A DNA stretch of 64,000 nucleotides from NCBI GenBank assembly GCA_965230955.1, contig OZ246404.1, positions 582,410 to 646,409 of the forward strand. The letters run 5' to 3'. Below the pieces are notes generated by a model. The model was not told where the DNA came from and did not search any database. It saw only the letters and a program-made list of their open reading frames with translations. The position numbers were made by a program, and so were the translations under genes. Shown in pieces: positions 303-62,995 of the stretch. The DNA is from an uncultured Candidatus Saccharibacteria bacterium (GTDB lineage: Bacteria; Patescibacteriota; CALEFQ01). How positions within the stretch are numbered: the first letter of the stretch is position 1; every line of letters starts with the position of its first letter.

Positions 303-373
303 GGTCTTTAGTCTTTAGTCTTTTGTCTTTAGCAATATCGAAATCTAAAGACCAATGACTAAAGACCAAAGAC
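303..373. repeat. Palindromic tandem-heptamer element, GTCTTTG family: GTCTTTAG x4 then loop then inverted CTAAAGAC units; atpF-atpE intercistronic
   Basis: ggtctttagtctttagtcttttgtctttag ... ctaaagaccaatgactaaagaccaaagac; the two arms are reverse complements. Confidence 0.8.
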
Positions 374-377
374 TTTT

Positions 378-605
378 TTACACAAACAAAACGATTAAAG
401 CTATAACCAAAGCGTAAATAGCTACCGCCTCGGCAAACGCGATGCCCAAAAACATCAACGTCTGAATTTTGCCGGAAGCTTCCGGATTGCGGCCGACGGC
501 GCTCAACGCCCCCTTGACCAACAAACCGATGCCAATACCCGGGCCGATGGCGCCGAGTCCGATCGCCAAACCGGCGGCGACGTACTTAAGAACTTCGTAG
601 TCCAT
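378..605 (-). CDS. atpE: F0F1 ATP synthase subunit c
   Basis: [27 protein letters not shown]...[16 protein letters not shown] is a c-subunit hairpin with the conserved carboxylate. The longer ORF start at 626 lies inside the repeat, so the start is called at 605. Confidence 0.85.
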
Positions 606-619
606 ATTGATTAAGTTTA

Positions 620-679
620 AAGTCAAAAGTCAAAGGTCAAAAGCTATTTACGGAACTTTTGACTTTTGATTTTTGACTT
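620..679. repeat. Palindromic tandem-heptamer element, GTCAAAAG variant; atpE-atpB intercistronic
   Basis: aagtcaaaagtcaaaggtcaaaag ... cttttgacttttgatttttgactt; same architecture as the GTCTTTG family with a different unit. Confidence 0.75.
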
Positions 680-681
680 AT

Positions 682-1413
682 TTAGTGGCTCTCCACCGTC
701 GACATTTTGAGGAACACCAAGGTCAGCATGGCGAAAACAAAGGCCTGAATAAACCCGACAAATATTTCCAGGGCGATAAACGGGACCGGGACGATAAAAG
801 TCACCAGATAAGTCATCACGACCAGTAAAACTTCGCCGGCAAAAACATTACCGAACAAACGGAAGGAAAACGATACCAGCTTCGCCACCTCGCCCACCAA
901 CTCGAGAAGGCCGACGAAAAATTTCATCGGATTACTGAAATTGAGAAAACGCTTGGCGTATTTGAAAAATCCCAGCGACGCGATCCCGACCACCTGAACC
1001 GTGACCACGGTAATCGCCGCCAAGACTATCGTCAAGTTCAGATCGGCGGTAGCGGCCCGGAAAATAGGCACCACTTCCTCACTGCCCGGCTCCACTATTC
1101 CGATCGTCCCGAAGCCCGGCAATAAGCCGATCCAGTTGGCCATGATAATGTACAAGAAAAAAGAAGCTACCAGGGGAAAGAAAAATTTTGCTTGCTTGGC
1201 GTTTTCCGTGACGCCTTCCACCATATTCTGCAGTTTTTCAATCATCCATTCCACAAAATTCTGCAAACCGCGCGGACGTTCTTTCAGGCGCGAGCCGGCG
1301 ATAATAGCGAAAATAACAATAACACCCACCACGATCCAGCTGGTCAGCAAAGAATTTGTCACCGCAAACGAACCGATATGAAAAATTACTTCCGGAGTGA
1401 ATGAAATTGGCAT
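682..1413 (-). CDS. atpB: F0F1 ATP synthase subunit a
   Basis: 243 aa polytopic membrane protein with FRLFGNVFAGE and LLPGFG motifs typical of subunit a. Confidence 0.85.
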   Translation of the reverse strand: MPISFTPEVIFHIGSFAVTNSLLTSWIVVGVIVIFAIIAGSRLKERPRGLQNFVEWMIEKLQNMVEGVTENAKQAKFFFPLVASFFLYIIMANWIGLLPGFGTIGIVEPGSEEVVPIFRAATADLNLTIVLAAITVVTVQVVGIASLGFFKYAKRFLNFSNPMKFFVGLLELVGEVAKLVSFSFRLFGNVFAGEVLLVVMTYLVTFIVPVPFIALEIFVGFIQAFVFAMLTLVFLKMSTVESH

Positions 1414-1452
1414 AAAAAAACCATAAAGCGGCTGTTTAAATTTCAGCCGCCT
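1414..1452 (-). terminator. Rho-independent terminator downstream of the 1521..1901 gene
   Basis: Stem gcggctg/cagccgc followed on the minus strand by a T-run (plus strand aaaaaaacc). Confidence 0.4.
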
Positions 1453-1520
1453 TAAATATAGCAGTGATTTTTTTTTAAGTCAACAACCAAACGGCAAAAT
1501 TGTGCAAAACCATCGAAAGA

Positions 1521-60760: not shown

Positions 60761-61147
60761 ATGAATGACATAACAAAGTTATGGATTAGAATTGGCAGTA
60801 GCGATCTTGCCGCCGCGATCTGTGTGTTAATAATCCTGGGGACATTCGATGCCAAGTCGACAGAGGTAATCAAGACTTTTATAGCTATCCTGGCTTTAGT
60901 CGGCTGGTTTTTTACCACCATGATTCACTCCTGTTGTATCGCGAATCTCGTTTATCCAGGCAAGACTGGAGATAAAAAGTTTTTCTTAGGGGCCCCTGTA
61001 ATTTTGATTGGGACGTTGATAATAACAGTATCCGGATCTCTTCAGTACAATTGCGCCGCTTCCTTTCCCTATCTATTTTCCCTAGGCATAGCCGCCAAAA
61101 TCATGTGGTATCACTGGCTAACTTTCTATCCAAAACCACAAGAATGA
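60761..61147 (+). CDS. Hypothetical membrane protein
   Basis: Four TM segments; AGGAGGGA Shine-Dalgarno sequence upstream of MNDITK. Confidence 0.3.
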   Translation: MNDITKLWIRIGSSDLAAAICVLIILGTFDAKSTEVIKTFIAILALVGWFFTTMIHSCCIANLVYPGKTGDKKFFLGAPVILIGTLIITVSGSLQYNCAASFPYLFSLGIAAKIMWYHWLTFYPKPQE

Positions 61148-61167
61148 ATGGTTATGATTCGACTCTC

Positions 61168-61199
61168 AAACCTGTTGGCACGACGCTAACAGGTTTTTT
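61168..61199. terminator. Bidirectional terminator between convergent genes
   Basis: aaacctgtt ggcacgacgcta aacaggtttttt. Confidence 0.45.
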
Positions 61200-61232
61200 A
61201 TTTGGAAAACACTTACCTGCACCAATAAATTA

Positions 61233-62336
61233 TTAATTCCGGATTGCCACAATCTCCCGCGCCGCTTTTTCCATTTCGTCTTCAAACTTTATTCCCGCCT
61301 TCAGCAAAATCGCCTTCGCTTCTTTTTCTCTAGTGCCGACCACGCGCAAGACAACGGGAATACTTAAACCTTTTTCTTTCACGAAATCAACCAGCCCCTG
61401 CGCGATCTCGTCCGCCCGTGTGATTCCGCCGAATATATTGATAAAAATCTTTTTCACCCCCGGCTTTTTGAGCGCGATCGTCAGCGCTTTTTTCATTTGC
61501 TCGGACGTCGCTCCGCCGCCGACATCAAGAAAATTCGCCACTCGGCCGCCGAAGTGCGCCAGCGTGTCCAGCGTCGCCATCACCAGCCCGGCGCCATTGC
61601 CAATCACCGCGATATCGCCGTCAAGCTCGACATAAGACATACTTTCCACGTTCGCCTCTTTTTCCAACGCGGTATAATCGTCCGTTTTATACTTCGCCAG
61701 TTCGGGATGACGAAAAAGCGCGTTGTCATCGATAACCACTTTCGCATCCAGCGCCATCAATTCGCCTGATTTTAACCGTACCAGTGGATTGATCTCAACC
61801 AAGGTCCCATCTTTTTCCACAAACAAGCGATACAGTTTTTGGATGATATCAATCACTTCGGCGGAAATACCGACTTGAGATTTTATATTTTGAATTTCCT
61901 TTGAATTTTGGATTTTAAATTTTTTGATTTTATCGGGGTTCTCCGCCGCAATCGTTTCCACATCAACACTTCCCTCTTCACAAAAAACGACCATCGGACA
62001 TTTGGCTACTCGATCAATCGTGATAGACAAATACATCTCAGCGCTCACGTCGAGAAAGCCGTAAATCAGGATTTCCTCGACCTTGAGCCCGCTAATCGTC
62101 ATATCAAAAATGCGTGCCACTTCACGCTCCACAATCTCTGGTTTGTTATCGACAAAAACTATACCGCCAGCCTTCTTGCGCTTGCCTTTAGCCACCTGCG
62201 CCTTGATCGAAACTTTGGGCCCCATTTTGTATACTTCCGCCGGTACAGCTTCGCCTTTTCTAATTAAAACGCCGCCGGGAGTACGGATCCCGTATTGCTC
62301 GAAAATTTCTTTGCCTTGGTATTCTTTTAAATTCAT
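61233..62336 (-). CDS. sucC: Succinate--CoA ligase (ADP-forming) subunit beta
   Basis: ATP-grasp N-terminus MNLKEYQGKEIF..., CoA-ligase C-terminal domain; 367 aa. Confidence 0.9.
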   Translation of the reverse strand: MNLKEYQGKEIFEQYGIRTPGGVLIRKGEAVPAEVYKMGPKVSIKAQVAKGKRKKAGGIVFVDNKPEIVEREVARIFDMTISGLKVEEILIYGFLDVSAEMYLSITIDRVAKCPMVVFCEEGSVDVETIAAENPDKIKKFKIQNSKEIQNIKSQVGISAEVIDIIQKLYRLFVEKDGTLVEINPLVRLKSGELMALDAKVVIDDNALFRHPELAKYKTDDYTALEKEANVESMSYVELDGDIAVIGNGAGLVMATLDTLAHFGGRVANFLDVGGGATSEQMKKALTIALKKPGVKKIFINIFGGITRADEIAQGLVDFVKEKGLSIPVVLRVVGTREKEAKAILLKAGIKFEDEMEKAAREIVAIRN

Positions 62337-62344
62337 AAATTAAG

Positions 62345-62426
62345 TATCAGGTAACAATTAACAAGTAACAAATAAGAAAATTCCCTTCCAATTTGTCACT
62401 TGTTACCTGTTACTTGATACCTGATA
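62345..62426. repeat. Palindromic tandem-heptamer element, GTAACAA variant; overlaps the last codons of the 62403..62966 gene
   Basis: tatcaggtaacaattaacaagtaacaa ... ttgtcacttgttacctgttacttgatacctgata. Confidence 0.65.
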
Positions 62427-62966
62427 TCCCGTTTCCACCGCCTTTACATTATCATCCGGTAATTTTTTCGGAATCGCCCGGCGCAAATTTACTTTCGATA
62501 AATCAATCTCCAGGTAAGCCAAGAGAGAACCCAGCGCGATTGTGCTGCCATAAATCGGCTTGCCGAATTTTTCTCGCCCCAGGCCAAAAAAATCATGAAC
62601 ATCGCCGTCGGTCCGCACTCCTTTTTGGGCAATGATATTGCGCCCGGTGAATTTCTTGCCGGTCACCCCAAGTTCGAGCAGAAAATCAGCTTGATCGACG
62701 ACTGGATTTACCACCTTTTTTTTATCAAACGCGATATAAGCCACACTGGCTCCGCCGCGCGAGGCCGCGTCGTAATCATTAAGGACGGTAACGTCAACAT
62801 CGAGCTGCATTAAAATCTCGCCCAAAATCGCCGCCAGCATTTTGACGCCTTGTCCGCCCGTCCCGGCCACAATAATTTTCGCGTGGTTTAACATATCCTT
62901 AATTTCCGGGCGAGCGCCCTCCTTCGCTAAAGCTACGGAGGATGAACCGCTCGCCCCTACTAACAT
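62403..62966 (-). CDS. 2-oxoacid:ferredoxin oxidoreductase gamma subunit
   Basis: IIVAGTGGQGV nucleotide-binding-like motif and size (187 aa) typical of PorG/KorC. Confidence 0.75.
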   Translation of the reverse strand: MLVGASGSSSVALAKEGARPEIKDMLNHAKIIVAGTGGQGVKMLAAILGEILMQLDVDVTVLNDYDAASRGGASVAYIAFDKKKVVNPVVDQADFLLELGVTGKKFTGRNIIAQKGVRTDGDVHDFFGLGREKFGKPIYGSTIALGSLLAYLEIDLSKVNLRRAIPKKLPDDNVKAVETGYQVSSNR

Positions 62967-62995
62967 CTCTTAATATCTTAATATTCTTAATATCT
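62967..62995. repeat. One-armed tandem heptamer run (TCTTAAT x4) directly upstream of the 62403..62966 start codon
   Basis: ctcttaatatcttaatattcttaatatct; no inverted partner nearby. Confidence 0.5.

Follow-up and report, generated by a model that had tools for sequence, protein, structure and literature searches.

Heptad palindromes between cistrons of an uncultured Patescibacteria-like bacterium share their architecture with inverted repeat arrays that bracket PF05635 genes

Thirteen imperfect palindromes, each arm of which consists of about four tandem 7-nt units (heptads), lie in a 64,000-nt stretch of contig OZ246404.1 (positions 582,410 to 646,409; the window in what follows) from an uncultured bacterium, and they have their architecture in common with inverted heptad arrays that bracket genes of the PF05635 family. 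The elements are lineage-specific insertions into the compact operons of this small-genome, Patescibacteria-like organism. They are best read, with a probability that we put at about 50%, as members without an open reading frame (ORF) of a family of intercistronic cassettes that resemble 23S rRNA intervening sequences (IVSs), akin to the short tandemly repeated repetitive (STRR) hairpins of cyanobacteria and acting at the RNA level. The finding at the level of the window is solid and in itself no surprise to those who know STRR sequences; what looks new is the link between palindromic heptad arrays and PF05635 across unrelated bacteria. Since the 1990s, heptanucleotide repeats have ranked first among the long simple repeats of bacteria, and what they do is a puzzle. 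The same holds for the function of the '23S-rRNA IVS proteins' of PF05635, a very large family with a four-helix-bundle fold.

Tandem Repeats Finder reported period-7 arrays at every locus cited by an earlier, sequence-only reading of the window, and an inverted-repeat scan joined the arrays in pairs as inverted arms of 20-38 nt that are 81-95% complementary and enclose loops of 3-43 nt. Beyond the 13 palindromes, the window holds a further palindrome that a gene splits in two, three one-armed arrays and one hairpin that is not built of heptads (Table 1). With a minimum stem of 18 bp, a minimum of 82% paired positions and a loop of at most 60 nt as criteria for a hairpin, 17 long hairpins were found in the window compared to 0-1 in each of ten first-order Markov shuffles, and the best internal arm period was 7 in 13 of the 17. 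Folding of the 13 palindromes as RNA on the gene strand gave -22.7 to -51.3 kcal/mol (z -4.5 to -13.1), and none of the 200 dinucleotide shuffles made for each element matched its native energy, which bears out, instance by instance, the hairpin that had been predicted. Five unit families are present and the arms match at every locus, consistent with the single architecture shared by several unit variants that the sequence-only reading had described. Its units of 7-8 bp were recovered as period-7 arrays, but the unit that it gave as GTCAAAAG is really the 7-nt unit GTCAAAR (Tandem Repeats Finder).

Within family 1, the start-proximal arm has exactly four heptads in all eight copies (hand count), and the copies have the apex TTTAGCC...GGCCAAAG in common. 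Comparison of the families revealed no conserved full-length consensus among the elements, and the loops are unrelated from one element to the next, with no conserved internal sequence. Identical copies of the elements are present in L120 and L121, two independent Logan assemblies of the same organism, and the elements are therefore not assembly artefacts, the outcome that would have undone the original description; orthologous copies are also present in related metagenome assemblies. As had been stated, the arrays are not CRISPR, since Tandem Repeats Finder showed 7-nt units head to tail with no spacers. A search of Rfam 15, which had been proposed as a check, assigned no element to a family at the gathering score. 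At the gathering threshold the window gives tRNAs, and the sub-threshold matches are eukaryotic miRNA-precursor models on both strands, which reflect generic long hairpins.

The window is about 89% coding, with nearly all genes on the minus strand, and all 13 palindromes fall within the remaining 11% or so. Read on the minus strand, a palindrome begins 0-4 nt past the upstream stop codon, or contains that codon, and ends 0-14 nt before the next start; the sucD element ends 30 nt before it, with a promoter intervening. In many cases the first heptads provide the upstream stop codon, and the hypD and DUF498 ORFs begin directly after the last heptad. Pfam confirmed the flanking genes atpB/atpE, hypC/hypD, the DUF498 protein, the NAD/FAD oxidoreductase, the Fer4_22 protein and glutaredoxin/DsbA, as well as the phosphorylase, ftsE/ftsX, sucC/sucD and korB/korG. 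The reported location at cistron junctions was thus upheld, whereas the statement that almost every junction is occupied was not: a heptad element is present at 15 of the 62 co-directional junctions window-wide (24%), and the statement holds only for the hyp/redox operon, in which all six consecutive junctions from Rhod/Fer4 to hypC/hypD are occupied. The array at 8523-8553, listed previously as an element of the same kind, is a heptad array, but it is one-armed and lies within the hypD coding sequence; it is the only element inside a gene, all others being in spacers. Elements 53293 and 58063 precede a tRNA gene and a promoter, respectively, rather than a start codon, and the element at 25815..25873 occupies a divergent intergenic region, where its position is that of a 5' leader and is not intercistronic. 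The korA-korB hairpin (63751..63829) has the same stop-to-start geometry as the palindromes, without heptads.

Hairpins at such positions could be intrinsic terminators or attenuators, possibly directed against antisense transcription, an explanation that we find scarcely credible. On the plus (antisense) strand, a run of 4-6 T comes after several family-1 elements, and four family-1 elements fold better on that strand, as this explanation would have it. However, no U-tract follows the helices on the sense strand, where the start codon comes immediately, and the stems are long and AU-rich, unlike those of terminators. The terminator scan called classical GC-rich terminators at the operon ends instead (e.g. 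6264-6293) and was silent at the elements. A terminator role on the sense strand was rejected on the strength of the silent scan, the AU-rich stems and the adjacent start codons.

[quoted passage not shown] The gene sits exactly at the apex (...GTCTTTAGCC, then the Shine-Dalgarno site and the IVP gene, then GGGCCAAAGAC...), is preceded by a Shine-Dalgarno site that is among the few strong ones in the window, and is bracketed by arms that form a duplex of -30.8 kcal/mol across a gap of about 360 nt. The same arrangement of an IVP gene in a palindrome was found in the relative L127 and in L130. The relatives L128 and L129 have neither an IVP gene nor a spacer at this Fer4/NAD junction, where an ATGA overlap joins their host genes. 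At the occupied site, the insert is flanked by ...GGGAAG and ATGATCAA and brings a TAG for the upstream gene. No target-site duplication was seen when the occupied Fer4/NAD sites (window, L127) were compared with the empty ones (L128, L129), nor was one seen in the flanks of the family-1 copies. An IVP that is 65% identical is encoded at another locus (L131/L132), with an 84-codon ORF on one side and a uracil-DNA glycosylase gene on the other; its gene is flanked by (ATCTTTR)4 and (YAAAGAT)4, which give a duplex of -29.4 kcal/mol, and the unit variant is that of L128, which comes from related samples. The reading frame of the IVP runs through the 3' arm in the window (11069-11150, ...GPKTNDQRPRTLT before the stop) and in L131 (1775-1825, ...SQRLKIKD before the stop), and the arm thus encodes a short lysine/arginine-rich tail in both; in L127 the ORF ends immediately ahead of the arm.

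To place the split element among IVP genes at large, 80 metagenome loci (L135-L214) that encode proteins 33-50% identical to the window IVP were taken from an IVP-alignment scan of contigs, the choice being made by protein similarity only. At the 69 loci with enough flanking sequence, 220 nt upstream were aligned to the reverse complement of the downstream region (Smith-Waterman). Inverted flanks scored at least 30 at 43 of the 69 IVP loci and at none of 102 shifted control intervals of the same length from the same loci, and 10 of the 69 reached a score of 30 in a direct-orientation control. The arm period was 7 in 33 of the 43 loci with inverted flanks, the median arm was 32 nt, and the units varied (GTGAATC, GAGATKT, TAGTAKT, GAGGATT, TAGCCAT and others). 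The distance from arm to neighbouring gene is mostly no more than about 15 nt, both at the upstream stop and at the downstream start, and the neighbours are co-directional with the IVP gene at 20 of the 26 loci at which both were called. Rfam found no rRNA in the window or at any of the 20 best IVP loci. The split element of the window is therefore one instance of a common plan, namely stop codon of gene A, heptad array, IVP gene, inverted array and start codon of gene B. No published description of this heptad-bracketed plan between cistrons was found in the literature searched.

Stop codons in the IVP cassettes number 0.75 per heptad in the stop-proximal arm and 0.40 in the other. As 7 equals 1 modulo 3, a stop codon in a heptad that is repeated three times covers all frames; three-frame stops were considered as the reason for period 7 and rejected, being present in 21 of 40 5' arms and 8 of 40 3' arms of IVP loci, but in only 3 of 14 of each in the window. 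Heptad palindromes and IVP cassettes also lie directly against tRNA genes (window 53215-53367, L135 and L134): a tRNA gene begins within the 3' arm in L135 (1859-1966), and a tRNA-like sequence precedes the IVP gene in L134 (~2800-3438).

The family-1 unit itself is widespread. A scan of species genomes for (GTCTTTR)3 gave at least 119 loci in about 0.9 Mb, and the counts that follow refer to the matches listed. These come mainly from Acidobacteriota (Pyrinomonadaceae, Blastocatellia, Vicinamibacterales) and Bacteroidota, with a few Patescibacteria, and the arrays fill short spacers, mostly between co-directional genes. An inverted partner lies within 110 nt of about 29 of 130 arrays, in the order GTCTTTR...YAAAGAC in 27 cases and the reverse order in 2. 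Other heptad units are palindromic there too, and period 7 accounts for 289 arrays, whereas periods 5, 6 and 8-10 have 1-29 and period 11 has none.

The history of the elements was followed in relatives found among metagenome assemblies; the named homologues closest to SucD (73%) and HypD (65%) carry the annotation 'Patescibacteria group bacterium', and the organism is probably an uncultured member of the Candidate Phyla Radiation. In L127 (HypD 83% identical) the same six hyp/redox junctions hold family-1 palindromes, L128 (HypD 82%) has one of the six together with a one-armed array of another unit, and in L129 (HypD 65%; GCA_042571345.1) the genes overlap or abut and there are no heptad arrays in 21 kb, the closer relatives having 0.2-0.6 per kb. 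L122-L124 (SucD 92%) have kept the ftsE-ftsX and sucD palindromes and carry small GC-rich hairpins or nothing at three other junctions, and the ftsX/tRNA-Gln position (53293..53367) is taken in relatives by a GC-rich terminator hairpin instead. Insertion into compact operons is the trivial explanation of why the elements fill the whole spacer.

Once present, the arms are under constraint. Spacers of the window and L127 are 92% identical (342 of 373 aligned positions), a value that is somewhat generous because repeats align flexibly, although the contrast between arms and loops remains clear; the flanking coding DNA is 79-88% identical and the third codon positions 63-75% (three scorable genes). 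Even 'degenerate' heptads and the C/T pattern of the arms are retained, two 3' arms are 100% identical over more than 30 nt, and the palindromic partner arm is also conserved, while the loops diverge and most insertions and deletions are whole heptads. At 9419..9492, the loop and the 3' arm are both 100% identical in L127. Arrays thus change by gain or loss of whole heptads, and between relatives both loops and synonymous sites have diverged far more than the arms, in agreement with the sequence-only reading, which had suggested that the elements are constrained and not simple sequence. At the rhodanese/Fer4 junction (12489..12545), the window and L127 carry (GTCTTTR)n/(YAAAGAC)n and L128 carries (ATCTTTR)n/(YAAAGAT)n; the G-to-A change in the 5' arm accompanied by C-to-T in the 3' arm amounts to a concerted change of both. 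From this one orthologous junction and the IVP-bearing copies, which come from L128-related samples, we infer that units turn over in concert in both arms.

Repeat insertions also enter tolerant coding loops, as the hypD and sucD genes illustrate. The same loop of hypD holds (YAAAGAC)4 in the window and (CGCAAAA)4 in L127. A surface loop of SucD has been lengthened by repeat-type DNA in both lineages (window 58847-58867; L122 10188-10221), by a GC-rich hairpin (GGGCGGCC-AGCC-GGCCGCCC) in the window and, in the same place, by the heptad array (AAAATTC)3-AAAACGC-AAAATTG in L122. The spacers of relatives contain a second family of small GC-rich hairpins with TTTA or TAAA loops (GGGGC-TTTA-GCCCC, CCCGC-TAAA-GCGGG, CCGGC-TTTA-GCCGG; L124 7257-7351, L122 6846-6960, L127 10989-11084), which sometimes stand at the place of a heptad element of the window and have a CTTTAGC core in common with family 1. 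Between korG and sucC, where the window has the GTAACAA palindrome, L122 has a GIY-YIG endonuclease gene (7497-7790) and L124 only an 8-nt spacer.

These comparisons bear on whether the elements are a mutational by-product, in which heptad arrays arise by slippage, become palindromic through intrastrand template switching and persist where they are harmless, as in spacers; we rate this quite unlikely. It would fit the dominance of period 7 over other periods at the foreign loci, the whole-heptad differences between relatives, the arrays with different units in tolerant protein loops of sister lineages, the lack of a wobble bias described below, and the absence of the elements from the deeper relative L129. 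It is opposed by arms that are kept, degenerate heptads included, above the level of third codon positions while loops diverge, by 3' arms of family 1 that are fixed at four heptads and by the apex that the copies have in common. Nor would random slippage lead one to expect the association with PF05635, which was seen in none of the 102 control intervals.

According to the reading that we prefer, the element would be co-transcribed with its operon, and its arms would pair into an AU-rich helix of 25-35 bp that closes off the insert. The helix would set the upstream stop beside the downstream start and so may preserve the coupling once given by ancestral ATGA overlaps, and an insertion could then be tolerated between formerly coupled genes. 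By analogy with the 23S intervening sequences, the helix is also a predicted RNase III substrate.

Several observations weigh against this reading. The arms give no positive sign of selection on RNA pairing, since G.U pairs are not in excess among their mismatches: counted on the sense strand, these are 15 G.U, 23 A.C and 40 transversions in the window arms and 32 G.U, 47 A.C and 109 transversions in the arms of 40 IVP loci. The co-variation of arms that had been suspected from the sequence is thus seen in the matched units at every locus and the concerted change at the L128 junction, but fine-scale compensatory evidence is absent. Four elements of the hyp operon fold better on the antisense strand, and the comparison of strands is inconsistent; one-armed arrays also exist (62967 and 51219 in the window, and at the DUF498-hypC junction of L128). 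The start-proximal arms are nearer to consensus than the stop-proximal ones (7 and 17 deviations, respectively; hand count), which points to a constraint on sequence beyond pairing. Only one copy in the window carries an IVP gene, the other 13 being without an ORF, and this stands against five unit families. An IVP gene is near one of the 119 GTCTTTR loci listed, and it is not nested in a palindrome. Finally, the window contains no signature of an RNase III gene. A slight lean of the mismatches towards A.C on the gene strand, equivalent to G.U on the antisense strand (70 A.C and 47 G.U combined), is weakly significant at best.

Some of these observations are what would be expected if the element works at the level of DNA, which we hold to be unlikely. 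The heptad arrays would then be terminal inverted repeats that are bound, as DNA or single strands, by a protein, for which the candidate is a pentameric IVP with one heptad to each subunit; the elements would be mobile or maintained through the bound protein, and the RNA hairpin would be incidental. A mismatch spectrum that is random with respect to wobble pairing is expected of protein-bound ends, and the arm sequence is conserved while loops drift. Arms of about 4-5 heptads (median 32 nt at the IVP loci, exactly four in the 3' arms of family 1) would suit a pentamer, and PMC4990558 cites a homopentameric homologue of the IVP, Xcc0516; the window IVP matches PDB 2GSC. In addition, the units differ between IVP lineages and track lineage in copies with and without the ORF. 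The occupied and empty sites, however, differ by no target-site duplication, and five unit families share the window with a single IVP gene. We know of no transposase-like function for PF05635, 118 of the 119 foreign GTCTTTR loci listed have no IVP gene nearby, and the strong bias to sense orientation and the stop-to-start placement point to a logic at the level of the transcript.

The asymmetry between the arms also raises the question of whether the start-proximal array, as a single strand, is the functional part, either as a leader for translation initiation or as the site of a regulator, with the opposite arm masking it until a ribosome on the upstream gene opens the helix and so couples the two genes. 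We judge this improbable. Shine-Dalgarno sites are rare in the window (~7-10 of 68 genes) and absent from all element-preceded genes, and the 3' arms, which end 0-14 nt from start codons, are the ones nearer to consensus and include the two that are unchanged in L127. The one-armed arrays at 62967 and 51219 stand directly upstream of starts, and direct heptamer repeats have been described in the same placement (MacGregor 2015, PMC4679880). Families 2-5, however, place the U-rich and not the A-rich arm beside the start, which leaves no common leader sequence. Some elements precede a tRNA gene or a promoter (53293, 58063), and the palindromic partner arm is conserved as well.

Compared with what has been described, the elements come closest to the STRR heptamer hairpins of cyanobacteria and to the 23S rRNA intervening sequences, neither of which the sequence-only reading had named. 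Canonical STRR units are CCCCAGT, TTGGTCA and CAACAGT, and STRR sequences are also found inside the RNase P RNA gene, where they extend a helix. Between hupS and hupL of cyanobacteria, STRR heptamer hairpins of unknown function have been proposed to act in transcript stability or translational coupling (PMC2670836). The window elements resemble them in their tandem 7-nt units, their dispersal in non-coding DNA, the presence of several unit families in one genome and the possibility of hairpins between co-transcribed genes. They differ in that the host is not a (heterocystous) cyanobacterium, the units are GTCTTTR, GTCAAAR and others, and 4+4-heptad palindromes that extend exactly from stop to start are the rule. 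In the literature searched, no report of a link between STRR sequences and PF05635 was found.

The 23S IVS of Coxiella has a 28-bp terminal stem with an S23p ORF in its loop and strain-variable GACAGAT heptamers at its 5' side, and RNase III cleaves it. IVSs are considered selfish and are excised by this enzyme, and versions without an ORF exist (PMC4990558). In common with the IVSs of Coxiella, Leptospira and Brucella, the window elements close off the insert with a stem of about 28 bp built by the inverted repeats at its ends and, in one copy (11069-11449), have a PF05635 ORF in the loop. In contrast to them, they lie between protein-coding cistrons, in sense orientation, and not in rRNA. 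They are thus STRR-like in kind and rRNA-IVS-like in plan, and they fail the definitions of both because host and units are wrong for STRR and the location is not rRNA.

Three other groups are further removed. TAACTGA repeats of marine Beggiatoaceae, some Cyanobacteria and Bacteroidetes, with 169 direct sets and one indirect set, have been proposed to be leaders or sites of a post-transcriptional regulator (MacGregor 2015, PMC4679880). They resemble the present arrays in standing a few nucleotides upstream of starts in settings poor in Shine-Dalgarno sites and in their patchy phylogenetic distribution, and differ in having a single direct unit where inverted pairs and multiple units are found here. 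Repetitive extragenic palindromic (REP) sequences and bacterial interspersed mosaic elements (BIMEs) are imperfect palindromes in the intergenic regions of operons, often near stops, and are thought to act on mRNA. REP units are 35-40 nt long, have one consensus with a GTAG head, are mobilised by REP-associated tyrosine transposases (RAYT) and have no heptad periodicity and no cargo gene; the window elements, unlike such a single consensus, have several unrelated units and variable loops. With Correia elements and miniature inverted-repeat transposable elements (MITEs) they share the form of dispersed non-coding hairpin elements whose ends recur in a gene-bearing version, whereas they have no target-site duplication and no conserved interior, and their gene-bearing version has no known transposase. 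The resemblance to REP and Correia-type elements that had been put forward is accordingly a general one, and with neither a target-site duplication nor a full-length consensus it goes no further.

The preferred reading, of IVS-like intercistronic cassettes that act in RNA, can be widened to the more tentative and on balance doubtful proposal that heptad palindromes, 23S rRNA IVSs and PF05635 proteins are three faces of one widespread, undescribed class of selfish cassette. Such a cassette would be made up of a heptad array rich in stop codons, an inverted array and, between them, a gene that encodes a pentameric IVP and has a ribosome-binding site of its own. Its targets would be highly transcribed stretches of RNA-coding DNA, whether between cistrons or in rRNA helices, and it would enter them in sense orientation. 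It would be rendered harmless by folding out of the transcript and being excised by RNase III; the IVP pentamer would recognise 4-5 heptads, and the palindromes without an ORF would be non-autonomous or decayed copies. IVP genes have also been reported inside cas operons (PMC3936711) and in rRNA insertions of the Candidate Phyla Radiation (PMC11270868).

Were the arrays the ends of IVP-carrying cassettes, the puzzles of the heptad repeats and of PF05635 would become one testable question, and the presence of IVP genes inside unrelated operons such as cas loci (PMC3936711) would be explained; as cassette cargo, IVP genes would co-occur with cas operons without this being a sign of functional association. 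The elements also mark cistron boundaries for the annotation of streamlined Patescibacteria genomes, and they illustrate that insertions carrying stop codons of their own can force open compact operons with overlapping genes.

Table 1 Heptad palindromes, one-armed arrays and associated features of the window
Feature	Coordinates	Strand	Position and remarks
Family-1 palindrome, (GTCTTTR)4 - 12-nt loop - (YAAAGAC)4	303..373	-	atpE stop to atpF start; -34.1 kcal/mol, z -7.5
Family-2 palindrome, (GTCAAAR)n/(YTTTGAC)n	620..679	-	atpB stop to atpE start; -24.7 kcal/mol, z -7.9
One-armed array, near-identical to family-1 3' arm	8523..8553	-	In hypD coding sequence; encodes RLKTKDQRLKT in a loop of variable length
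Family-1 palindrome	9419..9492	-	hypC stop TAG in first heptad; 3' arm abuts hypD ATG (gap 0)
Family-1 palindrome	9722..9797	-	DUF498/hypC junction
Family-1 palindrome	10164..10230	-	NAD/FAD oxidoreductase gene/DUF498 junction; 3' arm abuts ATG
5' arm of split family-1 palindrome	11472..11496	-	After Fer4_22 gene stop, before Shine-Dalgarno GAGGAGG of loop gene
PF05635 gene in loop of split palindrome	11069..11449	-	Frame continues through 3' arm
3' arm of split family-1 palindrome	11082..11110	-	Just upstream of oxidoreductase gene start
Family-1 palindrome, AGCC tetraloop	12489..12545	-	Rhodanese/SfLAP gene / Fer4_22 junction
Family-1 palindrome	20552..20604	-	Glutaredoxin/DsbA-like gene junction
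Family-3 palindrome, (AAAAGGY)n/(RCCTTTT)n	21497..21555	-	Upstream stop to 6 nt before ATG at 21490
Family-1 palindrome	25815..25873	-	4 nt upstream of ATG of PNP_UDP_1 (purine-nucleoside-phosphorylase-family) gene
One-armed (TAAAAAT)3 array	51219..51248	-	Ends 4 nt upstream of ATG at 51214; not in the earlier list
Family-2 palindrome	53293..53367	-	Overlaps ftsX stop; ends 3 nt before tRNA-Gln
Family-2 palindrome	54281..54352	-	ftsE stop to 7 nt before ftsX ATG; kept in L122 and L124
Family-5 long palindrome	58063..58181	-	Overlaps sucD stop; followed by promoter, then ATG of next gene; z -13.1
Family-4 palindrome, (GTAACAR)n/(YTGTTAC)n	62345..62426	-	Overlaps korG stop; ends 8 nt before sucC ATG
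One-armed direct array, period 8-9, ATATTAAGA-like	62967..62995	-	Fills korB-korG spacer; abuts korG ATG
Non-periodic 29-bp hairpin	63751..63829	-	Contains korA stop; ends 10 nt before korB ATG; missed earlier

The promoter that follows the family-5 palindrome (TTGAAG-16-TATAAT, 58023-58059, minus strand) lies 6 nt upstream of the ATG of a gene for a 582-aa protein with a metallo-beta-lactamase fold, which suggests a leaderless or near-leaderless mRNA; its counterpart in L122 and L124 is TTGAAA-16-TATAAT. A similar sequence, TGTGATAAAAT, precedes ftsE at 55122-55133.

Two further features of translation genes were noted. The prfB gene has a programmed +1 frameshift site (CTT TGA C, 56206-56222, minus strand; ORF0 start at 56278), with no Shine-Dalgarno-like stimulator upstream of the site; ORF0 reads MKETITRLEDLIQRIQKTLDSL up to its stop, and the +1 frame continues DISGKKQKII... 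The site is kept in L120 and L122-L124. Five tRNA-Arg genes stand in tandem at 49300-49697, 5-9 nt apart, with the anticodons ACG, TCG, TCT, CCG and CCT.

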